Position numbers and translations under genes: made by a program. The notes under the pieces were generated by a model. The model was not told the DNA's origin, did no database searches, and saw only the letters and a program-made list of their open reading frames with translations. 64,000 nucleotides of DNA from Thermomicrobiales bacterium (GTDB lineage: Bacteria; Chloroflexota; Chloroflexia; Thermomicrobiales; UBA6265): assembly GCA_041390825.1 (NCBI GenBank), contig JAWKPF010000004.1, forward strand, positions 129,088-193,087. The letters run 5' to 3'. This document shows, piece by piece, positions 2,695 through 55,684 of the stretch (positions are counted from its first letter, which is position 1; every line of letters begins with the position of its first letter).

Positions 2695-2817
2695 CTGGCA
2701 ACTGGCAACTGGCAACTGGCAACTGGCAACTGGCAACTGGCAACTGGCAACTAGCGACTGACAACTGGCGACTGGCGACTGGCAACTGACTGGCGACTGG
2801 CAACTGGAGACTGACTA
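2695..2817. repeat. Tandem heptanucleotide array: CTGGCAA x8 perfect, then about 9 degenerate units (CTAGCGA, CTGACAA, CTGGCGA ...)
   Basis: Read directly. Perfect units span 2695-2750 and degenerate units run to about 2817. The array lies upstream of the cytochrome c gene. Confidence 0.95.
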
Positions 2818-2948: not shown

Positions 2949-3434
2949 ATGCGGAAGCGTGGCTCGGTTCTGGCACTCACGTTACTTTCAGTGCTCATTG
3001 TGGTCGTTGCCTGTGGCCGCGCCAGCGAAGAGGACATCAACAAGGCGCTTGGCATCAAGCCGACCGCCACGTTGAGCGACGAGCAGATCGCCCAGGCAAC
3101 AGAATCGGCCGAAGCGGCAGCCTCGGCGATTGCCTCTGGCGCCACTCCTGTCGAATCCGGAATGCCGGTTGGCGATGTCCGCCTCGGACAACAGCAGTTC
3201 CAGTTCCAGTGCATGCAGTGCCATCAGCCGAGCGGCGCGGGTCAGGGCCCGGCGCTCACCACGGCCGATAGCCCGGCGATCGCGCTGACCGATCAGGAAA
3301 TCTTCGACATCGTCCGCACCGGCGAGGGGCATGGCACGCAAGCCGCGGTTTCTGAAGTCCGCGTCAACGACATGCAGCTCGCCAGCATCATCGCCTATAT
3401 CCGCGACCAGATCGCCACTGCCGAGGGAAGCTAG
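2949..3434 (+). CDS. Class I c-type cytochrome, probable lipoprotein
   Basis: Lipobox-like signal MRKRGSVLALTLLSVLIVVVAC. Single heme motif CMQCH. Distal Met candidate (VRVNDMQLASI). Confidence 0.75.
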   Translation: MRKRGSVLALTLLSVLIVVVACGRASEEDINKALGIKPTATLSDEQIAQATESAEAAASAIASGATPVESGMPVGDVRLGQQQFQFQCMQCHQPSGAGQGPALTTADSPAIALTDQEIFDIVRTGEGHGTQAAVSEVRVNDMQLASIIAYIRDQIATAEGS

Positions 3435-3590
3435 TCCGTAGTCGTCAGTCTCCAGTTGTCAGTACGGTGGGTTCGGGCACTGGTGACGGGGAGCTGAGCG
3501 CAGACGGCTTCGTATACTTGCCAGAACGAGCCGGCGACGCCTGAATGCGTTGCCGGATAGGTTGCGCGCGTCGGCAGGCAGGTTCCCGGT

Positions 3591-12881: not shown

Positions 12882-14012
12882 ATGGATCCAGACCGGTTCG
12901 ATTCGCTTGCCAAGCGGCTTGGGGGGCGGATTTCGCGGCGCGCGTTCGTTGGCGCAGCAGCCGCAACGATGTTGGCGGTTCCGGCCGTTCCCTATCGCAG
13001 CACGGTGCTTGCACAAAGCGAACGGACCACGGCGATCGACCGCTATATCGCCGTCCGCACCTTCGCCTATGACAGCACGCGCGAGAAGGCCGAAGCCGAA
13101 CTGCCCGATCTGGTTGCGCACATGGAGGAGCAGCCGGGATTCGTTGGTATCGAGTGTGTCTGGGGCGAGACCGAGATCTATCTGATCGTTACGTTCCTCG
13201 ATGAGGCAACCTCGGTTCCGGGAATGGAAACGATCGACTGGTGGATCGAAACCCACATTCAGTCGACGCTCTATGGCGACTTCGAACAGTCCGAGGGGAA
13301 GGTCGTACTCCGCTCGTTTCTCTTTGCGGGATGCCCGTGCGATCTGGAGGATGACGACGACCCGTGCGGTTCCGATCTGCTGGTGTGCTGCCCGGTTTCC
13401 GAGAGCGAGGGAGAGCCTGGTGTTTGCCTGACCGCGGAAACCACCTGCCCGGCCGGCGGCGGAGCGGATGACGATCCCAGCGATGAAGAACTGACGCTCT
13501 CGGCAGGCGATCTCACCCCCATTGCCGGCGCGGCGGTCTCCTGCACGAGTGAAGGATGCGACTGCCCAGACGGTATCTGTGACGCCGGGCTGGCTTGCTG
13601 CACATCCACCGGTACCTGCCAATACACCTGCCCATGCGGATATGAAGGCTGTTACTGCGTCGGCAGTGTCGTGAATACCTGCGACGACGGTCTGATCTGC
13701 TGCGCTCCAGGTGAGATCGGCGGCGAAGGGACGTGCCAGTATTCGTGCTCCTGCAGCTATGAGGGATGCTCGTGCACGACCGGGGTCGATGGCGCTTGCG
13801 ACGCTGGACTTTCGTGCTGCGGCATCTTCAGCTCCGACCCCGGCAATATCGGCGCCTGTCTCAGTAGCTGCTCCAATGGCTCGACCAACCCATGCCCCGG
13901 CGCAGACGGCTGCGAGTGCATTCCCGGCACTTCGTGGATCTGCAACGCCGGTCTCGTTTGCTGCGGCGCCGAGGCTGGCGAATCCGGCATCTGCGCAAGT
14001 TCGTGCGCCTGA
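12882..14012 (+). CDS. TAT-leader protein with an ABM/Dabb-like alpha+beta domain (tentative) and C-terminal hyper-cysteine repeat modules (paralog 1)
   Basis: ATG 12882 after GGAG. Leader MDPDRFDSLAKRLGGRISRRAFVGAAAATMLAV. Four modules of type GCxCx(5-7)C[DN]xGLxCC...GxC plus one N-terminal variant. Confidence 0.7.
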   Translation: MDPDRFDSLAKRLGGRISRRAFVGAAAATMLAVPAVPYRSTVLAQSERTTAIDRYIAVRTFAYDSTREKAEAELPDLVAHMEEQPGFVGIECVWGETEIYLIVTFLDEATSVPGMETIDWWIETHIQSTLYGDFEQSEGKVVLRSFLFAGCPCDLEDDDDPCGSDLLVCCPVSESEGEPGVCLTAETTCPAGGGADDDPSDEELTLSAGDLTPIAGAAVSCTSEGCDCPDGICDAGLACCTSTGTCQYTCPCGYEGCYCVGSVVNTCDDGLICCAPGEIGGEGTCQYSCSCSYEGCSCTTGVDGACDAGLSCCGIFSSDPGNIGACLSSCSNGSTNPCPGADGCECIPGTSWICNAGLVCCGAEAGESGICASSCA

Positions 14013-14233: not shown

Positions 14234-15490
14234 GTGGATCCGAACCGATTCGACTCGTTCGCCAAGAAGCTGGGTAGCCGGCTTTCTCGCCGCGACATGA
14301 TGCGTGTCAGCGCCGCCACGGCCGTGGGCGCCATCGCTGTCAGCAAGTTCACCAGCGTGGCTGCTCAGGATGCGGGCACCACGGCCAAGGATCGCTTCAT
14401 CTCGGTGCGCACGTATGCGTACAGCGGCACCGAGGCGGATGCGGCTTCCGGACTGAGCGGCATCATCGCCGTTATGGAGCAGCAGCCAGGCTTTATCGAA
14501 TACAACCTCGTCTTCGGCGATGGGCAGATCCTGGCAATCTCGACGTTCCTCGATGAGACCACGGCGGTGGCCGCGGCGCAGCAGGAAGATGCCTGGATCA
14601 GCGCCAATGCCGCCAATATCCTGAGCGGCTCGCCGACGATTCAGAGTGGCGATGTCTTCCTCCGCTCCGAGCTGCACGCTGGTTGCGGTTGCATCACCGG
14701 AACGGAGGATCCCTGCCACTCCTCACGCCTCACCTGCTGTGCTACGACCGACCGCATGGGCGGCCCGGGTATCTGCCTTACCAACGAAACGACTTGCCCG
14801 GGCGCGATGCCGGCTGAACCGACCGCGACTGCGGCGCCAGATGAGCCGACCGCAGTTCCGGCATGCACGGGCGAAGGCTGCGCCTGCAACGGCGGCGTCC
14901 AGAACGCCTGCGACGATGGACTGGTCTGCTGCGGTGTGACCGAGCCCGGTGGCCCCGGCACCTGCGAGACGGAATCCGAATGCAATCCGACTTGCTCCAG
15001 CGAGGGCTGCACCTGTATCGGTGGCACCGAAGGCGCCTGCGATGATGGTCTTGTTTGCTGCGGCTCGAACCAGCCGGGCGGCTCCGGCCACTGCATGACC
15101 GAGGATGAGTGCAACCCGCCGTGCACCAGCGACGGATGCACTTGCACCGCCGGCACCCAGGGCGCCTGCGACGACGGTCTCGAATGCTGCGGCGCGGACA
15201 CGCCGGGCGGTCAGGGCACCTGCATGGCTTCGTGCCCCTGCACCGGCGACGGATGCGCGTGCACCACTGGCACCGATGGCAATTGCGATGACGGACTCGT
15301 CTGCTGCGCAGCCGACATGACCACTCCGGGTTCCCCGGGCACCTGCATGGCGGTCTGCGATTCCAGCGATTGCAACGGTCAGGAGAACTGCCCCTGCACT
15401 GCCGGCACCGAGGGCGCCTGCAACGATGGTCTCGAGTGCTGCGGCGCCGATACCCCGGGTGGACAGGGCACCTGCCAGAGCAGCTGCTAG
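14234..15490 (+). CDS. TAT-leader protein with an ABM/Dabb-like domain (tentative) and five hyper-cysteine repeat modules (paralog 2)
   Basis: GTG 14234 after GAGGAGG. Leader VDPNRFDSFAKKLGSRLSRRDMMRVSAATAVGAIAV. Five ACDDGL[VE]CC-type modules. I count 47 Cys in the C-terminal region. Confidence 0.7.
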   Translation: MDPNRFDSFAKKLGSRLSRRDMMRVSAATAVGAIAVSKFTSVAAQDAGTTAKDRFISVRTYAYSGTEADAASGLSGIIAVMEQQPGFIEYNLVFGDGQILAISTFLDETTAVAAAQQEDAWISANAANILSGSPTIQSGDVFLRSELHAGCGCITGTEDPCHSSRLTCCATTDRMGGPGICLTNETTCPGAMPAEPTATAAPDEPTAVPACTGEGCACNGGVQNACDDGLVCCGVTEPGGPGTCETESECNPTCSSEGCTCIGGTEGACDDGLVCCGSNQPGGSGHCMTEDECNPPCTSDGCTCTAGTQGACDDGLECCGADTPGGQGTCMASCPCTGDGCACTTGTDGNCDDGLVCCAADMTTPGSPGTCMAVCDSSDCNGQENCPCTAGTEGACNDGLECCGADTPGGQGTCQSSC

Positions 15491-15511
15491 TCGCTCAGTC
15501 CTGATGCGCAA

Positions 15512-15546
15512 CCGAGGCGGCCGATCGGCCGCCTCGGTTTCTTGTT
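15512..15546 (+). terminator. Intrinsic terminator after the Cys-repeat gene pair
   Basis: Near-perfect palindrome CCGAGGCGGCCGATCGGCCGCCTCGG followed by TTTCTTGTT. Confidence 0.7.
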
Positions 15547-15553
15547 GGTTAGA

Positions 15554-15616
15554 GTCCAGAGTCCAGAGTCCAGGGTTCAGGGGCCAGAGGGGAGGGTCCA
15601 GAGGGGAGGGTTTTGT
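15554..15616. repeat. Heptad-periodic spacer, 9 units (GTCCAGA GTCCAGA GTCCAGG GTTCAGG GGCCAGA GGGGAGG GTCCAGA GGGGAGG GTTTTGT)
   Basis: Read directly. Sits between convergent genes. Confidence 0.9.
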
Positions 15617-15625
15617 GGTTCTCCG

Positions 15626-16903
15626 CTATCCAAGCAAGGGGCGGATGGCCTCGGTTGCCGTGGATAGGGCCTGGGATGCGGTTTGCTCGCCGCGCAGCGC
15701 CTTCTGGATTTCGCGCCCGATCTCCAGCGTGATCTCCATATAGTTCCGGGTCACGAAGCTATCGAAGGGCGACTCCGCCTGCTGCCGCAGCACCGCCGCG
15801 ACCGGTGTGGTTGCCTGAATCTCCGGATCATCCAGCGACGAGAGCCGCGCCGGCAACCATCCCAGATCGGTCCATTGCCGTTTTTGCACCTCGGGACTGA
15901 GGTAGAACTCGAGGAGCTGCATGGCCAGGTCGGGATTTTGGGATGTCGAGGCGAGTGTCCAGCCATCGACAGCGTTGACGGTCGCGTTGTTTTCCGGTCC
16001 CTTTGGCATCACGGCCGGGATGACTTTTTCGGTGCCGGGCGCGGCGCCGCCGTTCATCACTTCCCAGGATGATGGAAAGGTCATGAACATGGCCATGCCG
16101 TCATATTGCATGCGGAATGCCACGGCGGTGGTGTCGATATTGCTGAGCGTGTCACCGGTCATGGAGGGCATGAGGTCGATCATGAGTTGCAACGCGTCGA
16201 CCCCGGGCGCATCGTCGAATGCAGGCTGCCCGGCCTCGTCCCACATGACGCCACCGGCCTGTTGCAAGAACGCCATCCAGTACGACGTGACGCCGCCGAT
16301 TCCTGCCGGGGCGCCCCAGGGCGCCATCATGCCGATGGGAAAGGGCGGTCCCTGAAACTCGGCGGCGAACCCTTTCAGTTCGTCCCAGGTCGTCGGTGGC
16401 CCGGTCAGCCCTTTTTCGTCGAAGAGGTTCTTGTTGTAGAACAGGAGCATGAGGGAGAGGGTCGGCATTACACCGTACTGCTGCCCCTCCCAGGACATGG
16501 ATGTTCCCTGCGCTGGCGCCAGATCGTTCACCAGCTCGTCCGGCAAGCGTGAGCCGATTTCCTGCAGGTACGGACTGAACTCGGGAATCATTGCCGAGTT
16601 GTAGAGTAGGTCATAGACAGGGGCGTCGGTGTCGAAGGCGGCCTGGCTGACCTGATCGATCGAGAAAAGCGGTCGGATGTCGTAGGTGATGGCAGTGTCG
16701 CGGTCGAACTTCCAGATATCCAGCATGTCGTTGCCGTAATCGTAGGTTCCCGGCGGCCGTGGCTCTGGCCGTCCCGCGGTGAGGACGGTCAACTGGTTGG
16801 CTTGTGCTCCGACCGGCGCAACGCCATGGCCCAGGGCGAGCCCTGTCCCGGCCGCCGCGCCCATTTTCATCAATCTACGCCGGTCGAGCCGTCGCATCTC
16901 CAT
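15626..16903 (-). CDS. ABC transporter extracellular solute-binding protein (family 1, sugar type), orphan
   Basis: TAT-like leader MEMRRLDRRRLMKMGAAAGTGLALG. Typical SBP_bac_1 length and W/Y-rich composition. AAGGTG RBS. No permease genes adjacent. Confidence 0.8.
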   Translation of the reverse strand: MEMRRLDRRRLMKMGAAAGTGLALGHGVAPVGAQANQLTVLTAGRPEPRPPGTYDYGNDMLDIWKFDRDTAITYDIRPLFSIDQVSQAAFDTDAPVYDLLYNSAMIPEFSPYLQEIGSRLPDELVNDLAPAQGTSMSWEGQQYGVMPTLSLMLLFYNKNLFDEKGLTGPPTTWDELKGFAAEFQGPPFPIGMMAPWGAPAGIGGVTSYWMAFLQQAGGVMWDEAGQPAFDDAPGVDALQLMIDLMPSMTGDTLSNIDTTAVAFRMQYDGMAMFMTFPSSWEVMNGGAAPGTEKVIPAVMPKGPENNATVNAVDGWTLASTSQNPDLAMQLLEFYLSPEVQKRQWTDLGWLPARLSSLDDPEIQATTPVAAVLRQQAESPFDSFVTRNYMEITLEIGREIQKALRGEQTASQALSTATEAIRPLLG

Positions 16904-17103
16904 CACCTTGTCACGTATCTGTTTCAGCCGGAGTGATGCTATCCGGGTCCGGTGTCCAGTGTCCAGTGTCGGGAAGCCGACGTTCCACGCATTTCGCAGC
17001 TTCCCTCCTGCACCCAGTCGAAGCAGGATGGCCGAGAACGGGGCGATGTGCGTAAACAGAGACGCGCCCTGGATCATACGGCGCACGCGCGGAGAGCAAT
17101 GCG

Positions 17104-17613: not shown

Positions 17614-18822
17614 CTATCCGAACGTCGCGTCCAGGGCTGCTGATAGGTCGGCGATCAGGTCGGATGGGTCTTCGAGACCGACCGAGAACCGCAGGTGGCC
17701 GTAGCGGCGGAACGGTTCTGGATAGCGTTCCCAGCCGCCGCGGCCTTCTGGGCCGACATGGACGATGAGTGATTCGTCGTGGCCAAGGGAGACGGCGGAG
17801 GTGATTACCTTCAAGTTGCTCACGAAGCGGTTTTGCGTGTCCGCGTCGCCTTCGACCGCGAAGGCCAGCATGCCGCCGAAGCCATAGTCCCCGAACTGCC
17901 GCCTGGCTGATTCGTGTTGCGGGTGGGATGCCAGCCCCGGGTAGTAGACATAGGCGACGAAGGGGTCCTTCGCCAGGAATTCGGCGACCCGCTGGGCGCT
18001 TTCCACATGCTGCCGAAGCCGCAGGGGCAATGTCACCGAACCGCGGGTGATCATCCAGGCGTTGAACGGCGAAATCGCGCCGCCAACATCGACCAGCGCA
18101 TCGGCCTTGATCTTCGAGATCAGCGCGTTCGACCCGATCACCGCGCCACCCATGGCGTCGCCATGTCCATTGATGTACTTGGTCAGCGAGTGCGCCACCA
18201 AATCGGCGCCATGTTCCAGCGGACGGAACATCGGCGGAGGCGAAAACGTGGAATCGACCGTGAGCAGCGCTCCGCTTTCATGCGCGATTTCGGCCAGTGC
18301 CGCGATATCGGCTACTTCGGTGGTGGGGTTGGCGATCACCTCGGTGTGGATCAGCTTCGTTTCCGGGCGCATGGCGGCGCGCACTTCGTCCGGGTTGGTG
18401 ATGTCGACAAAGGTTGCGGAAATCCCGTATTTGTCCGGTAGCAGCTCATCGAATAACCGCCAGATGGCTTCGTAGGTGACATCGCTGAGGACGACGTGAT
18501 CGCCGCTCTCGAGCAGCGTGAAGAAGACTCCGTGCAGGGCAGCGACACCGGTGGCGAAGACGGCCGCCGCTTCGCCCCGTTCCAGCGCAGCCAGCTTTTC
18601 TTCCAGCCGGAGCTGGTTCAGCCCGGTGTTGCGGGTGTAGAAGAGGCTATTGGTGTCCGACCAGTCGATTCCGGTGGGGTCTTCCGGCAACGCATACGAG
18701 TTCGCCATTACGAGCGGTGTGCGAATTGCCCCGCTGCCGGCATCGATTTCATTGCCGATATGCACTGCTTGGGTAGCGAATGCCAGCGATTGCGGGTCGT
18801 GTTTGTCGGGTCGGAGGGTCAT
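17614..18822 (-). CDS. PLP-dependent Cys/Met-metabolism enzyme (methionine gamma-lyase / cystathionine gamma-synthase / O-acylhomoserine sulfhydrylase family)
   Basis: PLP-lysine motif HSLTKYINGHGDAMGG. Family-typical length and N-terminal FATQAVH. Confidence 0.85.
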   Translation of the reverse strand: MTLRPDKHDPQSLAFATQAVHIGNEIDAGSGAIRTPLVMANSYALPEDPTGIDWSDTNSLFYTRNTGLNQLRLEEKLAALERGEAAAVFATGVAALHGVFFTLLESGDHVVLSDVTYEAIWRLFDELLPDKYGISATFVDITNPDEVRAAMRPETKLIHTEVIANPTTEVADIAALAEIAHESGALLTVDSTFSPPPMFRPLEHGADLVAHSLTKYINGHGDAMGGAVIGSNALISKIKADALVDVGGAISPFNAWMITRGSVTLPLRLRQHVESAQRVAEFLAKDPFVAYVYYPGLASHPQHESARRQFGDYGFGGMLAFAVEGDADTQNRFVSNLKVITSAVSLGHDESLIVHVGPEGRGGWERYPEPFRRYGHLRFSVGLEDPSDLIADLSAALDATFG

Positions 18823-18828
18823 GGGTGA

Positions 18829-18891
18829 GTCCAGTGTCGAGAGTCCAGTGTCCAGGGGCTCGAGTCCGGAGTTCTGAGGCCGGAGTCCGGA
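18829..18891. repeat. Heptad-periodic spacer, 9 units (GTCCAGT GTCGAGA GTCCAGT GTCCAGG GGCTCGA GTCCGGA GTTCTGA GGCCGGA GTCCGGA)
   Basis: Read directly. Fills the gap between the paiB-like stop and the PLP-enzyme start. Confidence 0.9.
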
Positions 18892-18963
18892 GAAAACGGG
18901 TCGTGGGGAAGGGGCGCGGTGCTCTGTTGGGTCGAGTGTCCAGTGATCATGTTGGCTGCGGCG

Positions 18964-19608: not shown

Positions 19609-19702
19609 GTGAATGAAGTCCAGTGTCCGTAAATCAGATTTGGCTTCGACCATCCTACAATCGTAGACCGAACAGCACACCTGCCCCTATGAAAGGATTG
19701 GC

Positions 19703-25323: not shown

Positions 25324-25343
25324 GAGCTAGCACGCTGCATGCG

Positions 25344-25474
25344 GCAGGCAGCACGCAGATTTCAGGGTAATCTGCGCCGCGTACTACCCGAACGATGGGC
25401 CGCATATGAGCCTCTCCCTCATAAACTCAGACGGATCACAATCCCGCTGCGTGCTGCGTGCTGCGTGCTGCGTG
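25344..25474. repeat. Intercistronic inverted repeat built from GCAGCAC-type heptads (GCAGCACGCAG at 25348-25358; CTGCGTGCTGC at 25447-25457, within a GCTGCGT x4 array)
   Basis: Read directly. The arms are exact reverse complements over 11 nt and flank about 88 nt between the SBP stop and the permease start. Confidence 0.8.
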
Positions 25475-27337
25475 CTACTCCGTCAGGTACCACTTGTTGG
25501 CGTTCCAGAAGATGGAGTTGAAGGTGGTGGGCAGGAAGCCGCCGACGTTGTTTGCCACGGCGGAGAACTGCTTGTCCCAGTAGATGAAGATAGTCGGGAC
25601 CTGCTCGTTGAGGAGCTTCTGGGAGGCGAAATAGGCTTCCTTGCGCTTGTCCTGGTCGAGCTCGGCGACGGCGGGGTCGATGATGGCGTCGATCTCTTCC
25701 TGGAAGTTGAAGTGGAAGAAGTACGCCTGCACGTTGCCGCCGGAACCGGTTGGCGTGTCCGGAATGTATTGCGAGCTCCAGTACCAGGTGTTGTCTGGGT
25801 CGGCGGTGTTGTACCAGGCATACATGCCGGCGGTCATCGCTTCGGTGAACTGGTAGCCCTCTGGGCCGAAGATGGTGGAAACATCCTCGAACTTCTGCTC
25901 GGTCTTGACGCCGATGTCGCCCCAGGCCTGGGCCACGACCTGCAGGATGAGCTCGTTTTCCTGGCTACCCGAAGGAGCCCAGAGCTCGATCGCGAGCGGC
26001 TTGACCGGGCCGGTCTTGTCGGTCATCTCGTCGATGCCGTCTTCCGGGGTCGGTGTCGGGCCGGTCCAGACACCGTCTTCCATTGTCAGCCCAGCTTCTT
26101 CCAGCAGCGCTTTCGCCTTGTCCGGATCGTATGGGGTCGGCTGCAGATCGGGGTCCCACGCCCAGGTTTGCGGCGTGGTGTCCGCGGCGCTGGGGAGGAC
26201 GTTGTTCTTCATCAGTTGCTCGATGATCTGCTGTTTCGGGGTGGCGTAGTCGAGCGCCTGGCGCACACGGGGATCGCGCAAGTGGTCGATGATCTTGAGG
26301 TCGAAATGCTTCCAGGCCGGTGAGGGGGTTTCCAGGATGGAGATGTTCTCGATGCCGAGCGCCTCTTCCAGCCGAAGCGCGCTGATGGCCGAATCGCTGC
26401 TGGCTACCTGGATTTCGCCGGTACGCAACTGAACGAGCTGGGTATTGTCGTCCGGCACGATGGCGTAGATCAGTTTGTCGAGGATGGCTTTGTCGCCCCA
26501 GTAGTCGTCGAAGCGCACGAATGAGATCTGCTGTTGCGGCACCCACTCTTCGAGCTTGAAGGGACCAGTGCCGATGAGGGCGCGGCCGAAGTCTGCGCCG
26601 AAGGCAACGGGGTCGGCGACCGCGCTGGACGGGACGATGGGCGCGATACCGGTGGAGGAGATGAAGGGCGCGTACGGCTCGGCGGTGGTGATGGTGACCT
26701 GTTTGCCATCCTCAGAGGCGGTGACTTCGGTAACGAGGTCCCAGCTGAAGGTGTTGTACGTGCCGAAATCCGGGTTGTTGACGATCTTCCAGGTGTTGAT
26801 GACATCATCGGCCACGAAATCCTCGCCGTTGTGCCATTTCACGCCTTCGCGCAGGGTGAAGGTGTAGGAGAGGCCATCCTCGGAGATCGAGTACTCGGTC
26901 GCCAGGCGGGGTTGTGGGGCCAGGTTCTCATCGAGCGCCACGAGTCCTTCCATGGGGGCGCTGAACATGTCGAAGCCGATCTGGAGCTGGGTGAGGTAGG
27001 GGTGGAGCGTGTCCGGTTCGCCATGGCCGCCGAGCAACAGGGCGCCTCCTGCAACCTGGGCGCCTTCTGGAGCGGTTGGTCCTTCCACCGGGACGGTGGA
27101 GCCGTCCTGGTTGCGCAGCAACGTGGCAGCGCCGCGCCCGCCAGCGGCGGCCTGGGTGTCGTTGGCGGCGCGCAGCAGGACGCCGAGAACGGCCGCGCCG
27201 ATGCCGAGCTGCCCGGCCCGTTCGATCAGTTGGCGGCGGGTAATGCGCCGGTCGATGCGGGCCTGCACGATTTCATCAACGGTGGAAAGCGACGCCGGGT
27301 CGATCGGCGCGCCTGGCCGAGCGGTCATTCGGATCAT
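25475..27337 (-). CDS. Peptide/nickel ABC transporter substrate-binding protein (family 5)
   Basis: AGAGGAGG RBS before ATG 27337. RR-containing leader (RRITRRQLIERAGQLGIGAAVLG). Family-5 length and motifs. First gene of the operon. Confidence 0.85.
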   Translation of the reverse strand: MIRMTARPGAPIDPASLSTVDEIVQARIDRRITRRQLIERAGQLGIGAAVLGVLLRAANDTQAAAGGRGAATLLRNQDGSTVPVEGPTAPEGAQVAGGALLLGGHGEPDTLHPYLTQLQIGFDMFSAPMEGLVALDENLAPQPRLATEYSISEDGLSYTFTLREGVKWHNGEDFVADDVINTWKIVNNPDFGTYNTFSWDLVTEVTASEDGKQVTITTAEPYAPFISSTGIAPIVPSSAVADPVAFGADFGRALIGTGPFKLEEWVPQQQISFVRFDDYWGDKAILDKLIYAIVPDDNTQLVQLRTGEIQVASSDSAISALRLEEALGIENISILETPSPAWKHFDLKIIDHLRDPRVRQALDYATPKQQIIEQLMKNNVLPSAADTTPQTWAWDPDLQPTPYDPDKAKALLEEAGLTMEDGVWTGPTPTPEDGIDEMTDKTGPVKPLAIELWAPSGSQENELILQVVAQAWGDIGVKTEQKFEDVSTIFGPEGYQFTEAMTAGMYAWYNTADPDNTWYWSSQYIPDTPTGSGGNVQAYFFHFNFQEEIDAIIDPAVAELDQDKRKEAYFASQKLLNEQVPTIFIYWDKQFSAVANNVGGFLPTTFNSIFWNANKWYLTE

Positions 27338-31047: not shown

Positions 31048-34000
31048 CTATTCGTCAGCGGTCTCCTCGGGGATGATGTACGCGTTGCATGACAGCGTCT
31101 CGCCACCGATGAGCACGACCCCGATCTGCCCATCCGGACTCAGATAGGTGAGCGGATCGAAGAGCGGCTCCTGATCGAGATCGCGCTGATTGCTGGCGCA
31201 CGATGCGATAAACGCGGCTGCGGTCTCCTCGGGGAGCGATTCGGTCAGCAGCCATGGACCAGGTTTCAGCCCGGAGAAGGTCGCGACGCCGTCGTCGTCC
31301 GTGGTGTCGATTTCGACCGGTGCGACCTGAGCAGTCTCGCCGGCAAGGGCGAGCAGCGAGACCTCGATGCCGGGCGCCGGTTCGTCACAATCCTCTTGCA
31401 GATCGGACTCGGGGCCGTAAACGTCGTAGCCTTCCGGGCAGACGTACGTCGTGAGGATGAGGGTTGCCGGAGCGGTCGGATTCGGCGTGGCGATTGGAGC
31501 CGGGGTAGGCGGCTTACCCGTGCCCGGCGTGGGAGTCGGCGACGGATGATCTGGCGGGGCCAGGTTGAACCAGTAGCACTCCAATGCGTCACCGGGCGCG
31601 ACGTGCCGCTCGATGGCGAACTGCGTCACCGGCGCCGATTCGAATGCGGCCTGCTGGCTGCCCGACGTTTGAACCGCGCAGAAGACGACGGCGCTTGTGT
31701 AGCCAGCCGGTGGTGTCTCGCTGATGAACAGCGGGCCGGGCGCGACCTCTTCCCAGGCGACGCTGCCGGTCGCGTCCGTGGTCTTTGTGAGCTCGGTGGC
31801 GGGACCGCCGAGCGTGAACGAGACGCCTTCCAGCGGGGTCGAGCATTTGGTCAGCAGGGCCTGATCCGAGTCGCTGTGCGGAGGCAGATATCCCGCGGGA
31901 CAGGCGTACTTGTGGATGGTGACGGTTGCGGGCGTCGTCTCGATATTGAACCAGAAGCAACCGATGACGGTGTCTGGCGTGGCCGGGTACTCGATCGTCC
32001 CATTCGAGATTTCCAGATCGAGGTACTCAGTCGGGTCGGCGGTGGAACCGGCCGGAGCGTGCCCGCAGAAGACGCGGACCGGCTGATAGTCGGACGCCAG
32101 CTCCGTGATCAGGATTGGTCCGGGCGGCACGTCGGTGAACAAGGCATACCCGGTTGTGCCGATTGGCAGGGTGGAATCGTAAGCGGCCGCTTCATTGCGC
32201 ACCTGGAACTCCACTCCATCGATGGGGGTGCAGGCGCCGTTCAGATCGAGCTGGCTGGCATGCTGGTAGTCATAGTCAGCCGGGCAGACGCTCTTGTACA
32301 CGTAGATGTCGACCGGAGGCGCCTCGACCGCAGCCCAATAGCAGGTGATAACCGAGTGTGGCTCGGCTGGATAGGCCACCCCTTCGTCGGTAATCGTGAG
32401 CGAGGTGTAGCTGCTGGGCGATTCCCCCACCATGGCCTGTCCGCAGTTGACCGCGACGGTTTGGTACTTCGGTGACAGTTCCGAGATGCGGAGCGGCGAC
32501 GGAGGCAGCTCCTCGAAGGAGACCGTGCCTTCCTTGCCGGTTGGCAAGGTGACATCCAGCGCATCCGGGGAGGGCTCGGTGCCCGACGTGTTTCCTGCCT
32601 GCACGCGGAACGGGACGCCGGCGGGCGTTTCCGAGCATTCGGCACGTATCCGGTCGTTGGTGAGATCGGCGAGACTGATGGTCGGCGGGCAGACGCGCAT
32701 CGTGATGGCGACCTGGGCAGGCTCGACGTAGGGAACATCGAACCAATAGCATTCCAGGGTGTATCCCCCGGACAGATAGGCATAGAGCGGCTCGGCGTTG
32801 TACCGCGCGAGGCTGTCGGGTTCTCCGGCCGTGCCTGGGTAGTAGTCACACCAGGCGGCCAACGGGCGGAAGCCGTTACCAGCGACCTGTTGGATCTCGT
32901 TGAAACCAGGACTCAGGTTGGTGAACGACACGTTTCCGATAGCATCGGTCACGGCCTCGGCTGGTGTCGTGAGCGGAGCTCCAGCAGTGAAGGCAACGCC
33001 TTCGGCCCGGGGAGCGCAATCGTCCACGAGGGCTTCGGCCGACTTGTACGCGTCGGTCCCTTCCGGGCAGGTGTAGGTGTGCAGCGTGACCGTGGCGGGA
33101 TCGGTCGAGGTTGCGCCAGCGGGCATATTCGCCCAGACGCATTCCAGGAAATAGCCGTCTTTCAACTCGGATGGCACGCTCCAGTTCTCGACGGTTACGG
33201 GGTCCAGGCTGCCAGTCGCTCCGGCTCCCACGAGCGTAAAGCGGCAGAACACCTTGGGCGGATCGTAGCCCTCACGCGGGAGTTCCGAGATGCGGAAGAT
33301 GCCTGGCGGGATGTCGGCGAACCGCGCAATGCCGTCTGCGCCGGTAATCGCGCTGATGGTCGTCTCTCCGTATGCGATCTTGAACTCGACACCGGGTTCG
33401 GAGGAGCAGTACATCGCGATTTCGATGTAGTTCGAACTGATTGCCGAAAAGCCCGGTGGGCAGATTCGCTTGTCCACATAGACCGATCCGGCCTTTGGCG
33501 GGCTGTCCGCCTTTCCAGTTGGGACGTTGAAGAAGTGGCACTCGATCACCTTGCCGTCTTCGATGGTCGCCGCGATGCCGCCATCGGCTACGGTCTGCTC
33601 GGCATAGACGTCTGTCAGGGCGAGGGCAGGCAGCCCGACATCGGTGGTCCTGCAGAGGGCGCGTTGCAACTCCTCGCCAGCAGTGCCCGGTTCGCCGATG
33701 CCCACGTTGCCGGGCGGTAATCCTTCGAATCTGGCAATTGCGGGGCCCTTTTCGAGGCGGGTCAAAGCGGTGAACGGCGCGCCGGTGGGGTAGTAGACCG
33801 CGATAACGACGCCTTCTTGCGGTGTCGGGCAGGCCACGCGAAGTTCTTCGTATGACTTGCCGGATGGATCGAAATCATCTGGGCAGCGCCACTTGAGAAT
33901 CGTGACGTGGCCGCCATCGTCCGCTGCCTTCCCCGTCGTTGCCATAGGAACTGTGAACCACTCGCAGGAATAGACGAGGGACGGATCGACATCCGAAAGC

Positions 34001-36213
34001 GGCATGGAAGGTTCGCCGGCGTTCAGGCGACCGGCATTGACATATGCGGGCTCCGCGCCCGCGGGCGCGGCTCCGCACCAGGCGTAGCCGTTGGCGAGCG
34101 AGTGGGGCGGGGTCGGCTGGATGTAAATATCGCCGGGCAAGACGCGGAAGGAGACAATGCCGTCAGCGCCGGTGGTCTCGGATGCGGTCAGTCCTCCGGC
34201 GTGCGTCAGATCGAACGTCACGCCCGGTTCTGGGTTGGTGCAGGCCGCGCGCCAGTCGTCGATCACGACGGTGTCGGGGTATTCGGGTCCGCACAGGTAT
34301 TTCTTGACGGTGACCGCAACATAGGCGTCATCCGGCAGCTCCTGGAACTCGAACCAGTAGCAACTCGTCTCGTACCCGCCTTCGATGTCGACTGTGACAG
34401 GAACCTCGGCATAGGCGGAGACTGGCGGAGCAGCTTCGCCGCGCGGATACGTTGTGCAGAAGAGCCGGTTCTGGCCGGAGTCTCCGAGGAGATTGAGCTC
34501 AGCTTCGCCGGGTGGGACATCCGGAAAAGAGATCGGCGCGCCGCCGGAGATGGCTGCGGTGAGGTCGGCGCCGCTTTCTGCCGAGAAGAGGCGAACCTGC
34601 GCGCCGTCGTTCGGCGTCTGGCAGAGGTCGAGATAGTTCTGCAGGGACCTGGTGGGGTCGTAGAGCTCATCAGCGCAGACGTATCCCTGCACCGTGACGC
34701 TCCCCGTGCCGTTGCCAGCCGCCACCACCGTGGGCGCAACTCCTTCGACGTAGAAAGAAACACAATTCAGTGTGTACCGTTCCGGAATGTCGTAGGTGAC
34801 GAGGTCGCCATCGTACGTCGGAAGATGAAAGGATGTGCCATCCAGTTCTCCTTGCGGTGGCGCAGGATCGCAGTAGGCCGGTCCAGCCAGGTAGCCTGGG
34901 GGTGCTTGCTGCGCGATGGTCACCATGCCCGCGGGGATGTTCTTCCATTCGAGGAAACCGTTCGTTCCGGTGTTTCCGGTGAACTGTTCGCCGTCGGCCG
35001 TGGTGAGGGTGAATTCGATGTTCAGGCCGGGAATCGAGCAACCCACCGTGAGCGCATGCAGCGTCATGTCAGCGGTGTCGTAGTCGGGTGGGCAGAAGAA
35101 GGGGATCATGGCGACGGTGGACTGGGGGACAGGAATGTTGAAGAGCTCGCAGTGCAGCGCTTGTCCAGGCGCAACCTGTCCGGTGATCTTCTTCCCATCG
35201 GACTGCACAAGGGACAGGTCGGGAGATCCGGCGGGGGTACCGACCGGGGCGACGCTGCAATAGGGCTGCGCGTATCGGTAGCCATCGGGGAGCGATTCGA
35301 GGATCGTCACGTTGCCGGATGGCACATCGGTCCAGGCAAGGAGGCCCTGGGCATCGGTCGTGGTGGTGCGGGGTTCGCCGGTGCTGGCCTGGAGCGTGAA
35401 GGAAAAGCCGTCTCCCACGGTGGTGCAGGCAGCTTTCAGCGCGCCGAGGGTCATGTCCGCTGTGTTGTAGTTGACCGGGCAGCGGTAATTTGTGAGGTGA
35501 ACTTCACCGGCCGCGGCGATGGCGTCCGGGGTGAGCGCCAGCGCGGGGTCGCCAGACTGGACGTTGAACCAGCGACAGTAGGTCTGGGCGTAGCTGGCCA
35601 GATTTGGGTCGCTCAGCCCGATATCGATCGTTCCCCCGCTGACGGGGAAGTAAAGGTATTGATCGGCGCCCGGTCCACCGGTGACCTCACAATAGACCCA
35701 GGGATCGGGCGCGCCCTGGGGGACGGTCTCGGAGATGGTGTATCCGGTTCCGAGCGGGATATCGGGCCAGGCGGCGATTCCGTCCCCACCGGTGGAGCGG
35801 GTATCGCCCGGATAAGCCGGGTTTTGGGTGTTCAGCGAGAAGGCGATGCCGGCCAACGGCTGGACACAGTTGGCGAGCGCTCCCGACGCATCGACGGTCG
35901 AAAGGTCGAACCCGGGCGGGCAGCTTCGTGCCTCGGCAATCGCAGCGGCAACACCACCGGCCTGGGGGTCCGGTTCAGCTTCGGCGGTGCTGGTGGGTTC
36001 CGGCGCGGGTTCTTCGGTGACCTCGGGTTCTGGAGCCTCACCTTCGCCGTCGCTTTGGACTTCTGCGATGGGCGTTTGCTCCTCGCCGTCCTGGGCGCCC
36101 ACGCCGGACGGCGCAAGGGCGGGCAGCATCGAGAAGAGGACAGTTGCCAGGACGAGTACGGTAAAGAACCGGGCAGTAGCGGAACGACCTGAAGGACGAT
36201 ACGACAGCTTCAC
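31048..36213 (-). CDS. Giant secreted protein (about 1721 aa) made of 12 tandem Cys-framed Cna-B/SpaA-like (prealbumin-fold) repeats
   Basis: GTG 36213 after GAGGAG. Signal peptide and acidic Pro/Glu linker. 12 repeats, each starting x-Y-x-C-P-x-x-[YF]-D ... C ... G-V-x-F and carrying T-D-x-x-G ... P-G ... I-x-E ... P-x-G-Y ... C ... C-x-W-F. No LPXTG. Confidence 0.75.
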   Translation of the reverse strand: MKLSYRPSGRSATARFFTVLVLATVLFSMLPALAPSGVGAQDGEEQTPIAEVQSDGEGEAPEPEVTEEPAPEPTSTAEAEPDPQAGGVAAAIAEARSCPPGFDLSTVDASGALANCVQPLAGIAFSLNTQNPAYPGDTRSTGGDGIAAWPDIPLGTGYTISETVPQGAPDPWVYCEVTGGPGADQYLYFPVSGGTIDIGLSDPNLASYAQTYCRWFNVQSGDPALALTPDAIAAAGEVHLTNYRCPVNYNTADMTLGALKAACTTVGDGFSFTLQASTGEPRTTTTDAQGLLAWTDVPSGNVTILESLPDGYRYAQPYCSVAPVGTPAGSPDLSLVQSDGKKITGQVAPGQALHCELFNIPVPQSTVAMIPFFCPPDYDTADMTLHALTVGCSIPGLNIEFTLTTADGEQFTGNTGTNGFLEWKNIPAGMVTIAQQAPPGYLAGPAYCDPAPPQGELDGTSFHLPTYDGDLVTYDIPERYTLNCVSFYVEGVAPTVVAAGNGTGSVTVQGYVCADELYDPTRSLQNYLDLCQTPNDGAQVRLFSAESGADLTAAISGGAPISFPDVPPGEAELNLLGDSGQNRLFCTTYPRGEAAPPVSAYAEVPVTVDIEGGYETSCYWFEFQELPDDAYVAVTVKKYLCGPEYPDTVVIDDWRAACTNPEPGVTFDLTHAGGLTASETTGADGIVSFRVLPGDIYIQPTPPHSLANGYAWCGAAPAGAEPAYVNAGRLNAGEPSMPLSDVDPSLVYSCEWFTVPMATTGKAADDGGHVTILKWRCPDDFDPSGKSYEELRVACPTPQEGVVIAVYYPTGAPFTALTRLEKGPAIARFEGLPPGNVGIGEPGTAGEELQRALCRTTDVGLPALALTDVYAEQTVADGGIAATIEDGKVIECHFFNVPTGKADSPPKAGSVYVDKRICPPGFSAISSNYIEIAMYCSSEPGVEFKIAYGETTISAITGADGIARFADIPPGIFRISELPREGYDPPKVFCRFTLVGAGATGSLDPVTVENWSVPSELKDGYFLECVWANMPAGATSTDPATVTLHTYTCPEGTDAYKSAEALVDDCAPRAEGVAFTAGAPLTTPAEAVTDAIGNVSFTNLSPGFNEIQQVAGNGFRPLAAWCDYYPGTAGEPDSLARYNAEPLYAYLSGGYTLECYWFDVPYVEPAQVAITMRVCPPTISLADLTNDRIRAECSETPAGVPFRVQAGNTSGTEPSPDALDVTLPTGKEGTVSFEELPPSPLRISELSPKYQTVAVNCGQAMVGESPSSYTSLTITDEGVAYPAEPHSVITCYWAAVEAPPVDIYVYKSVCPADYDYQHASQLDLNGACTPIDGVEFQVRNEAAAYDSTLPIGTTGYALFTDVPPGPILITELASDYQPVRVFCGHAPAGSTADPTEYLDLEISNGTIEYPATPDTVIGCFWFNIETTPATVTIHKYACPAGYLPPHSDSDQALLTKCSTPLEGVSFTLGGPATELTKTTDATGSVAWEEVAPGPLFISETPPAGYTSAVVFCAVQTSGSQQAAFESAPVTQFAIERHVAPGDALECYWFNLAPPDHPSPTPTPGTGKPPTPAPIATPNPTAPATLILTTYVCPEGYDVYGPESDLQEDCDEPAPGIEVSLLALAGETAQVAPVEIDTTDDDGVATFSGLKPGPWLLTESLPEETAAAFIASCASNQRDLDQEPLFDPLTYLSPDGQIGVVLIGGETLSCNAYIIPEETADE

Positions 36214-36610: not shown

Positions 36611-37705
36611 GTGACCATTGCAGGAGCGTGCAGCCGGACTTCGCCGAGATTCGACCAAGCCGCCCGGCAGTACGACGCCTTGCTTCTCCTTTCGTTTGGC
36701 GGACCTGAGGGCCCCGAGGACGTCGTTCCCTTTCTCGAAAATGTCACCCGCGGACGGAATGTGCCACGCGAGCGGCTGGACGAAGTGGCGGAGCACTATC
36801 TCCATTTCGGCGGGGTGAGCCCGATCAATGCGCAGAACCGCGCGTTGATTGCCGCGCTGCGTGACGAGTTGCGCCGTCATGAGATTCTGCTGCCGGTCTA
36901 TTTCGGCAATCGCAACTGGGATCCCTATGTCACCGATACCATAGGGGAGATGCGCTCTGACGGAGTGCAACGCGCGCTCGTCTTCGTGACCTCGGCGTTC
37001 AGTTCCTACTCCGGTTGCCGCCAGTATCGGGAAGATGTCGCCCGGGCAGTCGATGCGCTCGGGGAGCCAGCGATCGCATTCGACAAGATTCGCGGGTTCT
37101 ACAACCATCCAGGCTTCATCGACACCATGATCGCGCTGACTGCCGAGCGGCTCGATCGAATTCCGGTCGATCGGCGAGCGACTACCGAGGTGATTTTCTC
37201 CGCGCATAGCATTCCCGAATCGATGGCCAAAGGGTGCGCGTATGAGAAGCAACTGGCAGAGGCGTCGCGCCTGGTGGCACGGATGCTGGAACTGCCATCC
37301 TGGCGGCTGGCCTATCAGAGCCGCAGCGGATCGCCGCTGACACCCTGGTTGGAACCAGATATTCTCGATGTGCTCGAGACGCTGCCAGACGCCGGATTCA
37401 CCGACGCGGTGATCGTGCCGATCGGTTTCATTTCAGACCATATGGAAGTGCTGTTCGACCTCGACCATGAGGCGGCCGAGCGGGCTGCCGAACTGGGTCT
37501 GGGGTTCCAGCGCGTGCCGACTGCAGGGACGCATCCGCGATTCGTCGCCATGATCCGTGAGTTGATCGAAGAGCGGATGACGTGCGATCCAACACGCCAA
37601 GTGGTTGGCAACTTTCCACCAACGCACGATGTTTGCCCGCTCAATTGCTGCCTGATCGGCACAGGGCGCCCAACGGCTCCCGCGATTGCGGCTACACGCT
37701 CGTAA
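36611..37705 (+). CDS. hemH: Ferrochelatase (coproporphyrin ferrochelatase type)
   Basis: GTG 36611 after GAAGGAG. Motifs LLLSFGGPEGPEDV, YFGNRNWDPY and SAHSIPE. C-terminal Cys cluster CPLNCC plus internal SGCRQY suggests a [2Fe-2S] type. Confidence 0.85.
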   Translation: MTIAGACSRTSPRFDQAARQYDALLLLSFGGPEGPEDVVPFLENVTRGRNVPRERLDEVAEHYLHFGGVSPINAQNRALIAALRDELRRHEILLPVYFGNRNWDPYVTDTIGEMRSDGVQRALVFVTSAFSSYSGCRQYREDVARAVDALGEPAIAFDKIRGFYNHPGFIDTMIALTAERLDRIPVDRRATTEVIFSAHSIPESMAKGCAYEKQLAEASRLVARMLELPSWRLAYQSRSGSPLTPWLEPDILDVLETLPDAGFTDAVIVPIGFISDHMEVLFDLDHEAAERAAELGLGFQRVPTAGTHPRFVAMIRELIEERMTCDPTRQVVGNFPPTHDVCPLNCCLIGTGRPTAPAIAATRS

Positions 37706-37814
37706 GCCGGGCAAAACGTAAGCTTTCCGCATTTCATCGGCTAGAATGACTTTGAAACAGATGGATACACTGGCGCACGCGCCACTATCCTGCCTGGATC
37801 AGGATTCGCATTCA

Positions 37815-38756
37815 ATGGCACTCGGGAACCACATTCGGATAGGAGCGCGCGGCTCGCGACTGTCGCTCCGGCAGGCTGAATTGGTTCGTGCTCGATTGGC
37901 ATTGGCGCATCCCGATCGGGAAATCTCGATTACGGAGATCACCACCACCGGCGACCTCACGATCGATACCCCGCTCCCCGAAATTGGCGGCAAGGGCGTC
38001 TTTACGCTCGAAATCGAAGAGGCGCTGCGGGTGGGACAGATCGACCTGGCGGTCCACAGCTTGAAAGATTTGCCGACCGAGCCGACGCCGGGCATTGTGA
38101 TTGGGGCAGTTCCGGAGCGGGTCGACGTATCAGACGCGGTAGTCAGCCGCTCCGGGGTCCCCGTGCTCGAGTTGCCAGCACATGCCGTGATTGGCACCAG
38201 CAGTCACCGGCGCGCCGCGCAGTTGCTGCGGATGCGGCCGGACTTTCGGCCGGTGTCGATCCGAGGCAATATCGAGACCCGCATTCGCAAGACGATGGAT
38301 CCCAACGGGATGTATGACGCAGCAGTTTTGGCGAGCGCCGGTCTGAAGCGAATTGGGCTCCTCGATGCCGCGATCGAGCAATTGCCGTTGGATCTGATGC
38401 TGCCCGCGCCGGGGCAGGGGGCGCTCGGCGTGCAATGCCGGGACGACGCCGAATCGATTGCACTGCTGGCAGCTATCGACAATGTCGCTGCTCGTCTGGC
38501 GACCAGCGCGGAACGATCGTTTCTCTCCGGGGTGGGCGGCGGATGCTCAGCGCCGATCGCCTGTTACGGTGAGTTGACCGGCAATACGTTGCAGTTGCGA
38601 GGACGGATTGTGGCGCTCGACGGGTCGAGCCAGGTCGATGTCATGCTGGAGCGGGAGATCTTCGATGAAGCGGGAGCGATGGCCGCGGGCGCCGCGCTGG
38701 CGCTGGAAGCATTGCAATCTGGCGCGGCCGAGTTGTTGGCGGCGACAGCGGTATGA
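37815..38756 (+). CDS. hemC: Hydroxymethylbilane synthase (porphobilinogen deaminase)
   Basis: IRIGARGSRLSLRQA N-terminus. HSLKDLP. Cofactor Cys in GGGCSAPIA. Confidence 0.9.
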   Translation: MALGNHIRIGARGSRLSLRQAELVRARLALAHPDREISITEITTTGDLTIDTPLPEIGGKGVFTLEIEEALRVGQIDLAVHSLKDLPTEPTPGIVIGAVPERVDVSDAVVSRSGVPVLELPAHAVIGTSSHRRAAQLLRMRPDFRPVSIRGNIETRIRKTMDPNGMYDAAVLASAGLKRIGLLDAAIEQLPLDLMLPAPGQGALGVQCRDDAESIALLAAIDNVAARLATSAERSFLSGVGGGCSAPIACYGELTGNTLQLRGRIVALDGSSQVDVMLEREIFDEAGAMAAGAALALEALQSGAAELLAATAV

Positions 38757-55663: not shown

Positions 55664-55684
55664 GGGCGGTTCCCTTTGATACGA

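Follow-up and report, generated by a model that had tools for sequence, protein, structure and literature searches.

The stretch of interest, referred to here as the window, is a 64,000-nt piece of the genome of a Thermomicrobiales bacterium (63% G+C). Its gene content is ordinary: ATP-binding cassette (ABC) transporters, a haem-biosynthesis operon, copper and thiol-redox proteins, and SH3-repeat proteins. A self-trained codon model places 54 genes on it, covering 55.5 kb, and provides the division into coding and non-coding DNA used throughout; for the genes that flank the features of interest, identities were checked by Pfam and against annotation precomputed for related contigs. All 2-kb bins show positive GC skew, as a single replichore would give, and a search of the whole window against Rfam 15 gave no matches at gathering score. 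Between the genes lie a number of short tandem arrays of 7-nt units, which are the subject of this work. They were located with Tandem Repeats Finder (TRF), by lag-7 identity, and by tract scans at two stringencies; their units were then read in a 7-nt register. These arrays are intergenic heptanucleotide simple sequence repeats (SSRs), a known kind of repeat, and include its inverted-pair form.

Period-7 arrays in the gaps between genes

The period-7 signal of the window belongs to its non-coding DNA. Lag-7 identity reaches 0.294 there, against 0.252 in coding DNA, where the signal is flat. Compared with first-order Markov simulations, the non-coding segments stand out at lags 7, 14 and 21 (z = 6.0, 4.7 and 5.6, respectively); at lags 5, 6, 8 and 9 they are flat (z from -0.5 to 1.4). 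The two tract scans return four and five period-7 tracts, all mostly non-coding, and no tracts of period 5, 6, 8 or 10. A preliminary description of this DNA had proposed that heptad-periodic tracts lie outside the coding genes, and had named as evidence against itself a signal equally strong in coding or shuffled sequence. No such signal was seen: each listed tract exceeds 2000 shuffles of its own sequence in lag-7 identity at p <= 0.0025, except for the two units at 19617–19630 (p = 0.03). Absence from independent assemblies, the second outcome that would have counted against the proposal, was not seen either; the arrays are also present in a metagenome-assembled genome (MAG) from NCBI, a JGI metagenome, a Logan assembly and a second NCBI metagenome (L003–L006), which represent strains ~98–99% identical to that of the window.

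Arrays occur in ~10 of the 37 gaps of at least 40 nt, or roughly one quarter, which is what the "many" gaps of the preliminary description amount to. Their positions are of three kinds: (i) intercistronic gaps between co-directional genes, namely substrate-binding protein (SBP) to permease (25324–25474), permease to ATPase (55664–55847), and PaiB-like protein to pyridoxal phosphate (PLP) enzyme (18823–18963), (ii) 5' regions (e.g., 16947–16974), and (iii) one 3' region (15551–15611). None of the seven divergent-promoter gaps contains an array, a number too small for significance. The proposed contact with stop and start codons is real, several arrays starting on the stop codon itself (TAG at 1849, 2600, 3434 and 25475; TGA at 55848). 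The units fall, as had been thought, into a few families when read in register, the main ones being GTCCAGT, GCAGGCA, GTAGTCA, CTGGCAA and GTCGTCA, and all single GTC-type arrays of the window have the same orientation on the + strand. A G at every seventh base, which had been given as the general mark of the tracts, can be found in seven of them in a chosen phase, but not in the opposite-orientation arrays at 25441 and 55819 or in the CTGGCAA array; it reflects nothing more than the best-conserved position of the unit as read in that phase. The list of coordinates itself is sound, with TRF calls at or beside nearly every entry, but omits the largest array (2695–2807), whose unit had been named as a motif only.

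The first array (1848–1885) is degenerate, reading GTCGTAA GTTGCCG GTCGTCA GTCGTCA GCAGCCG from the TAG stop of an ABC-ATPase gene (1118–1849; Pfam ABC_tran). TRF assigns it period 7 at 1848–1877 and period 21 at 1835–1885, and its lag-7 identity is 0.60 (p = 0.0005). A composite array (2599–2662) runs from the TAG stop of the open reading frame (ORF) at 2013–2600, and consists of three to four GCAGGCA/GCACGCG units followed by five of GTAGTCA/GTAGTTA/GTGGTCA (TRF 2599–2624 and 2619–2656; lag-7 identity 0.77). The largest array of the window (2695–2807) lies upstream of a cytochrome-c gene and contains 16.6 copies of CTGGCAA, with the variants CTGGCGA, CTGACAA and CTAGCGA (TRF score 163, 86% matches; lag-7 identity 0.87). 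In a predicted RNA fold, G-U pairs join it to the array at 2619–2662 in a stem that is heptad-periodic (z = -1.87). From the TAG stop of the cytochrome-c gene, a short degenerate array can be read in the sequence at 3434–3461 (GTCCGTA GTCGTCA GTCTCCA GTTGTCA); only these first four units of the tract at 3434–3496 are visibly periodic, and lag-7 identity over its full 63 nt is 0.46.

The array at 15551–15611 (TRF) separates two convergent genes. It comes after the intrinsic terminator (15510–15539; a 13-bp stem and T-run) of the gene on the + strand and directly follows the stop codon of the SBP gene on the - strand. It contains three GTCCAGA units, variants of these, and then 2.4 copies of AGGGTCCAGAGGGG; this last part (15579–15611, +) holds a canonical G-quadruplex motif, GGGGAGGG-N6-GGGGAGGG, and is the sole array of the window to do so. 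The array at 16947–16974 reads GTCCGGT GTCCAGT GTCCAGT GTCGGGA (TRF 16947–16970, 94% matches), or ACTGGAC units on the sense (-) strand, and lies 44–71 nt upstream of the ATG (16903–16905, placed from the translation MEMRRLDRRRL) of a gene for a sugar-binding protein with a twin-arginine translocation (TAT) signal. It encloses a -35-like TGGACA, although such sites are not more numerous than expected by chance.

A nine-unit array (18829–18892; TRF; lag-7 identity 0.68) fills the gap between the PaiB-like gene and a Cys/Met-metabolism PLP enzyme gene (17614–18822), whose product is 100% identical to a protein from a Thermomicrobiales MAG. On the sense (-) strand it reads TCCGGAC TCCGGCC TCAGAAC TCCGGAC TCGAGCC CCTGGAC ACTGGAC TCTCGAC ACTGGAC, followed by TCACCC and the ATG. 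Two further units (19617–19630; ACGGAC ACTGGAC on the sense strand), marginal at the p value given above, stand just upstream of the likely true start of the PaiB-like gene (MVYLPPHF); the gene encodes 214 aa in L005 and in more distant relatives, which places its start downstream of these units. Lastly, a degenerate array of 4.7 units of GCACGCA/GCAGGCA type (51999–52031; TRF 73% matches, p = 0.0005) lies directly 3' of the stop codon of a methyltransferase gene on the - strand.

Inverted pairs and predicted intercistronic hairpins

Two gaps contain arrays in inverted pairs. In the gap between the SBP and permease genes, a perfect array of 4.4 GCTGCGT units (25441–25476; TRF 25446–25476, 100% matches), which on the sense strand gives GCACGCA units from the TAG stop of the SBP_bac_5 gene, is partnered by the short inverted arm GCAGGCA GCACGCA G (25344–25358), recognized by reading the sequence and by its pairing in the fold. 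The RNA of this gap (25324–25478, -) is predicted to form a hairpin with a minimum free energy (MFE) of -73.1 kcal/mol (z = -3.65; 1 of 200 shuffles as good), whose arms are the array that follows the upstream stop codon and its inverted partner, which ends ~4 nt before the permease ATG. The version of this gap in L003, which contains three extra units, still folds (-76.1 kcal/mol) in a shifted register. In these folding models, then, a stem built of repeats tolerates slippage.

The second pair lies in a sugar ABC operon, between the permease gene (BPD_transp_1) and the gene for a MalK-like ATPase (ABC_tran/OB_MalK/TOBE). The tract at 55684–55748 (TRF period 14 at 55684–55713), upstream of the ATPase gene, consists of one arm, GCAGGCG GCATGCA GCAGACA GCATGCA, and after it GTCCAG-type units (TGTCCAG AGTCCGG AGTCTTG TGTCCAA). 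The inverted arm (55819–55847), CTGTCTG CTGCGTG CGGTGTG CTGCCTG, corresponds on the sense strand to GCAGGCA-type units directly 3' of the permease gene's TGA stop (lag-7 identity 0.68, p = 0.0005). Together they close a predicted hairpin at 55664–55850 (-; MFE -75.1 kcal/mol, z = -2.98, 2 of 200 shuffles as good). Three of about nine single-array gaps were folded as well, and all are unstructured: z = +1.1 for 18829–18892, +1.2 for 51999–52031 and -0.4 for the third.

In the other SBP-to-permease gaps of this lineage, ordinary GC-rich hairpins directly follow the stop codon. The paired arrays are therefore located where a hairpin is the norm, which points to a role like that of repetitive extragenic palindromic (REP) sequences. 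In enterobacteria, REPs and the bacterial interspersed mosaic elements (BIMEs) that they compose are conserved imperfect palindromes, mobilized by REP-associated tyrosine transposases (RAYTs), and form stable hairpins after stop codons in ABC-transporter operons. By analogy, the paired arrays between binding-protein, permease and ATPase genes probably work alike, as mRNA stabilizers or processing sites of the REP type. They are not members of the REP family, however: their stems consist of locus-specific tandem heptamers.

A separate, REP-like 26-mer, GTCATCCTGAGCGCCAGCGAAGGATC, is found at 55789–55814 (-), within the loop of the second hairpin. Variants of GTCATCCTGAGCGCCAGCGAAGGATC occur in binding-protein-to-permease gaps of L010 (14469), L133 (8993) and L135 (14328), and the gaps of L010 and L001 fold as long inverted pairs of the REP-like 26-mer.

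Change between strains and recurrence across phyla

The window and L003 are 97.9–99.4% identical over ~19.6 kb, in two aligned blocks. Only two clean non-coding indels separate them, of 21 nt and 7 nt, and both lie within arrays: L003 contains three extra GCACGCA units at 25450 and one extra TCTGGAC unit at 15550. Non-coding substitutions number five in ~2,100 nt. A similar difference is seen in a relative at 93% protein identity, represented by two JGI samples (L007 and L009) that differ by one GCAGGCA unit (six versus seven). These whole-unit changes dispose of the fixed length of nine units (63 nt) earlier ascribed to several tracts, since in L003 the array at 15554 is longer by one unit and that at 25441 by three; the regularity is a coincidence of one strain. 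Two further differences from L003 were observed. Firstly, a rearrangement or insertion of ~1.8 kb lies at the 3' end of its PLP-enzyme gene (L003 11135–12921 versus ~17618–17880 in the window; products of 451 and 402 aa). Secondly, several 1-nt coding indels split genes in L003; these are possibly errors of the MAG consensus.

At greater distances, array position is kept, while sequence and length are not. The array at 18829–18892 is near-identical in four other assemblies (one to two substitutions, no indels), and in relatives at 88–93% protein identity it is replaced by other heptamer arrays. Comparison of this gap, between the PaiB-like and PLP-enzyme genes, yields a series of zero, three and nine units. 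L001, L002 and L136 have no units, but a non-repetitive leader with an SD-like (Shine-Dalgarno-like) GAAGGA or GAGAGG. L135 has three, ACAGGAC TCAGGAC TTAGGAC, followed by CAACC and the ATG; L133 has four of the same kind, plus six copies of GCAAGAG right after the upstream stop codon. In L010 and L007, GCAGGCA/GCACGCA arrays follow the stop codon and xCTGGAC/xCAGGAC units precede the ATG. The window has nine units, homogenized to xCTGGAC, with AGGA now TGGA in most copies. In every case the 3' edge of the array lies 5–6 nt from the ATG, so that the AGGA or TGGA of the last unit sits at about -10 to -7. On the simplest reading of these sequences, a heptamer containing the SD core would have been duplicated, and later expanded and homogenized.

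In a single-gene neighbour-joining tree, the array-free L001 and L002 are nested among array-bearing relatives. The tree is weakly resolved and gives no order of gain and loss, but suggests that array presence is patchy among close relatives. The leader upstream of the PLP enzyme gene in these two contigs (L001 9799–10003; L002 9798–10003) is of note in itself: it is a conserved, non-repetitive sequence of ~200 nt with no Rfam match, and possibly a candidate undescribed leader or riboswitch.

Arrays that leave a reading frame open mislead start-codon prediction. One and the same binding-protein gene is called at 483 aa in L004 (5018–6469) and at 423 aa in L003 (13772–15043), the longer call crossing an ACTGGAC array.

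The xCTGGAC type of unit was also sought outside the lineage. A scan for three copies of CTGGAC-N in one genome per GTDB species (596 Gb) returned at least 120 stretches, compared with ~17 expected by chance (our own estimate, from 18 specified bases in 596 Gb). By record title, the matches listed come from at least a dozen phyla, including Acidobacteriota, Planctomycetota, Verrucomicrobiota, Bacteroidota, Pseudomonadota, Actinomycetota, Chloroflexota, Cyanobacteriota, Gemmatimonadota and Nitrospirota, and several MAGs are matched on multiple contigs. A second scan, for three copies of CAGGAC-N, was made in metagenomes, and its results are likewise those among the matches listed. The loci listed hold many more period-7 arrays of other units. 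Crude ORF calls take up 87% of the sequence of these loci, and 56% of the seed arrays are not within them.

Reverse complementarity between neighbouring arrays is far too frequent to be put down to chance. Among the matches listed, arrays no more than 400 nt apart form 31 inverted, 5 direct and 50 unrelated pairs in genomes, and 25 inverted, 15 direct and 26 unrelated pairs in metagenomes. With pairs 25344/25441 and 55684/55819 of the window and these 56 across taxa (again among the matches listed), the paired arrays belong with the inverted-pair heptamer repeats of the Xanthomonas type. No such rule was seen for orientation relative to GC skew or to transcription as a whole: at 119 of the loci listed, CTGGAC orientation shows no link to local GC skew (p = 0.2–0.36), and overall there is no preference for the sense strand (19 versus 15 among the matches listed). 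A bias does appear close to start codons. Among the matches listed, arrays within 30 nt upstream of the ATG of ORFs of at least 150 codons have GGAC on the sense strand in 17 versus 5 cases for CAGGAC (p = 0.017) and in 11 versus 5 for CTGGAC, which fits an SD-related origin or constraint for that subset. An apparent asymmetry in proximity to stop codons (27 versus 6) was dropped, as every frame of GTCCTGA units contains TGA, where spurious high-GC ORFs come to an end.

Probable origin and possible roles of the arrays

The preliminary description knew of no element class that matches these tracts, and likened them loosely to the short tandemly repeated repetitive (STRR) sequences of cyanobacteria. 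The likening is apt, the repeats being of the same kind, and the class is in fact a described one: heptamer SSRs are known from Calothrix, Xanthomonas, Nostoc, Beggiatoaceae, Bacteroidetes and Chloroflexus aurantiacus. STRRs have been noted since 1990 in Calothrix and Nostoc, with units CCCCAGT, TTGGTCA and CAACAGT. As here, they are intergenic tandem 7-nt units of several families per genome; they differ in belonging to heterocystous cyanobacteria and in their units, and the present arrays are not made of STRR1–3 units. A shared unit consensus with STRRs or TAACTGA was considered and set aside, agreement reaching only 5–6 of 7 positions (GTGGTCA versus TTGGTCA, 6/7; GTCCAGT versus CCCCAGT, 5/7); given seven rotations, two strands and ~30 comparisons, we estimate that this similarity is within chance.

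Over-representation of heptameric SSRs, which belong to the long bacterial SSRs with units of 5–11 nt, has been on record for many bacterial genomes since 2007 (Mrazek 2007, as cited in PMC4692102, which also cites the Calothrix STRR report). The present arrays have the features of that class, namely 7-nt units joined head to tail in three or more copies above chance, lengths that differ by whole units between strains, and a concentration in intergenic DNA. For Xanthomonas and Nostoc, Rehm et al. (2015; PMC4692102) described strong intergenic over-representation of heptamers and of no other unit length, with 70–75 convergent pairs of GGGAATC SSRs per Xanthomonas genome; among Xanthomonas species, the position and type (single or pair) of an SSR are kept, while length and sequence vary, and slippage at the polymerase active site has been proposed as the origin. 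The Xanthomonas GGGAATC and Nostoc GGGGA(C/T)T repeats resemble ours in being intergenic and in keeping position as length and sequence change, and those of Xanthomonas also in their frequent inverted pairs. A further likeness would be that they are mostly transcribed. The published repeats have one dominant family of G-tract units able to form G-quadruplexes, whereas here several families coexist and most units lack a GGG run (GG at most); of the arrays in the window, only 15579–15611 has the at least four runs of at least three G that a quadruplex-forming heptamer array would require.

In Beggiatoaceae, cyanobacteria and Bacteroidetes, MacGregor (2015; PMC4679880) described TAACTGA arrays, intermingled with different heptamers, near start codons without an SD. 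Like those described here, these are arrays of 2–6 or more units near starts, with mixed heptamers, downstream genes often without a canonical SD, and a patchy distribution across phyla. They have a single dominant, AT-rich unit and only one indirect (inverted) repeat in the Maribeggiatoa genome, whereas our units are GC-rich and some contain an SD-like AGGA. Among Chloroflexi, our literature search on intergenic heptamer tandem repeats found only the report of 22 (GATAGRA)n-derived satellites in Chloroflexus aurantiacus (Subirana and Messeguer 2019; PMC6749651), and none for Thermomicrobiales. These too are dispersed, non-coding, heptamer-derived arrays in a related Chloroflexi lineage, but of another class, with a single purine-rich family and no strain- or gap-level analysis reported. 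In the 5' regions of H. influenzae hmw1A and hmw2A, a heptanucleotide SSR contingency locus, the copy number of a 7-bp tandem repeat is reported to change by slippage and to tune expression via 5'-UTR (untranslated region) structure and RNase III (PMC8262952, PMC12721329). That is proven phase variation at a single virulence locus of a host-adapted pathogen, whereas the present arrays occupy dozens of housekeeping and transport gaps of an organism known only from environmental metagenome assemblies. What is new is the lineage, the unit families, the strain-level change by whole units, and the expansion series of an SD heptamer; moreover, both xCTGGAC/xCAGGAC arrays and inverted pairing appear to recur in many phyla.

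We consider it probable that the arrays are heptanucleotide SSRs that arise by slippage, are confined by selection, and turn over fast. Slipped-strand mispairing, suggested by the whole-unit indels, would duplicate a 7-nt motif already present in a spacer; in one gap, the motif would include an SD-like AGGA heptamer just before the start codon. The array would then gain, lose and homogenize whole units. Since seven is not a multiple of three, an array inside a gene would shift the reading frame, so that arrays would survive only in unconstrained spacer, where they would expand as far as a stop codon, start region or terminator. Turnover is rapid, and between relatives position is kept where sequence and length are not. 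Where arrays are paired, they would form long, register-tolerant hairpins across intercistronic gaps; single arrays near starts or promoters may shift or multiply weak SD-like or -35-like motifs, and a change in copy number could tune expression. Slippage as the generator, frameshift selection as the cause of exclusion from genes, and REP-like or expression-tuning effects are all things that we infer.

Several points weigh against this account. Slippage alone accounts neither for the restriction of expansion to period 7 (the window has no arrays of period 5, 8 or 10) nor for the frequency with which neighbours are reverse complements. The arms of hairpins across taxa are only ~79% complementary, and a candidate test for RNA pairing, an overdispersion of G-U versus A-C mismatches (p = 0.017), was dropped because the mismatches, repeating from one unit to the next, are not independent. 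A promoter scan of two regions found one -35-like TGGACA and one TTGCCA within arrays, a number of promoter-like sites not significantly above the shuffle mean; the finding that genes downstream of arrays have no canonical SD comes from only four genes; and the strain comparison covers ~21 kb only.

The best-placed alternative, which we regard as possible but a good deal less likely, is that the arrays are selected as cis-regulatory RNA elements: inverted pairs would set segmental mRNA stability, RNase III processing or translational coupling, and single arrays would act as tandem weak SD or standby sites. In the coupling version, the 5' arm would run from the upstream stop codon and the 3' arm end at the downstream ribosome-binding region. 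Indeed, the hairpins reach from the stop codon to ~4–19 nt before the next ATG, L003 keeps its hairpin despite three extra units, and arrays occupy SBP-to-permease and permease-to-ATPase gaps, where relatives have ordinary hairpins. The sense-strand GGAC bias within 30 nt of the ATG and the position that AGGA or TGGA of the last unit takes in five lineages, at about -10 to -7, also favour selection on the RNA, as does the H. influenzae precedent of a heptamer SSR reported to act through 5'-UTR structure and RNase III (PMC12721329). Such a role sits poorly, however, with the lack of an overall sense-strand preference, the unstructured RNA of the three folded single-array gaps, the fast turnover of sequence and copy number (some relatives being array-free), the imperfect stems, and the second hairpin (55664–55850), which leaves an SD-like AAGGGA unpaired.

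The two features that slippage leaves unexplained could be accounted for by a specific 7-nt activity or reader behind the arrays, such as a replication or repair enzyme that realigns in steps of 7 nt, template switching that copies an array into an inverted partner, or a protein reading RNA or DNA in a 7-nt register. A dedicated factor would explain the expansion of period 7 only, the reverse-complement neighbours, and a distribution that is patchy among close Thermomicrobiales relatives and yet spans at least a dozen phyla; we nonetheless think it unlikely. Less likely still is the proposal in its narrower form, that the arrays are platforms for a protein with a 7-nt register (a cold-shock-domain protein, with one molecule per heptamer, a HutP-like antiterminator, or a DNA-binding or nucleoid protein) or the footprint of an enzyme moving in 7-nt steps. 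HutP has a register of UAG-N4 repeats, and the GTAGTCA/GTAGTTA array can be read as UAG-N4-UAG-N4. Cold-shock proteins have been suggested as possible readers of heptamers (PMC4679880), and the amplification of period 7 alone, patchy among close relatives but found in at least a dozen phyla among the matches listed, counts in its favour. Against it stand several unrelated unit families within 64 kb, the lack of an orientation rule with respect to transcription or GC skew, the free drift of the units, and the lack of a candidate protein in the window. That the tracts are remnants or termini of mobile elements (MITE-like), CRISPR-like arrays, assembly artefacts or chance is hardly credible: inverted pairs superficially resemble terminal inverted repeats and one Logan contig (L008) ends within an array, but the units differ per locus with no shared internal sequence, are contiguous 7-mers without spacers of CRISPR size (a CRISPR array has repeats of 23–50 nt and unique spacers about as long), have no Rfam matches, recur in four independent assemblies and in complete long-read chromosomes, and beat the shuffle controls that exclude chance.

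Nothing in these results overturns current knowledge. Intergenic heptamer repeats have been on record in bacteria since 1990 (STRR), and at genome scale since 2007. The lineage studied here provides a natural series—near-identical strains that differ by whole units, a gap with zero, three or nine units, and predicted whole-gap hairpins in transporter operons—with which existing metagenomes could be used to measure rates, origins and effects. The arrays are of practical concern too: they break short-read assemblies, mislead gene callers (one binding-protein gene is called 60 codons too long), and can be used as strain-level markers.

Some other features of the window deserve mention. The adjacent paralogous genes at 12882–14012 and 14234–15490 (+) code for secreted repeat proteins that are rich in Cys and have TAT-like N-termini; in each module, a conserved C-D-D/A-G-L-x-C-C core is flanked by further Cys. 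The product of 14234–15490 has no Pfam match, the L003 counterpart of 12882–14012 has no precomputed Pfam hit, and a 129-nt tandem repeat lies at 14981–15226. A protein of ~1700 residues encoded at 31048–36129 (-) contains many modules of ~95 aa, each with paired Cys; its homologue in a relative has only faint Pfam hits of the SpaA/CarboxypepD_reg type. Finally, the row of genes at 36611–43725 (+) resembles, judging by the translations, the coproporphyrin-dependent haem pathway, with hemH, hemC, hemD, hemB, hemE, hemY and a hemQ-like gene.

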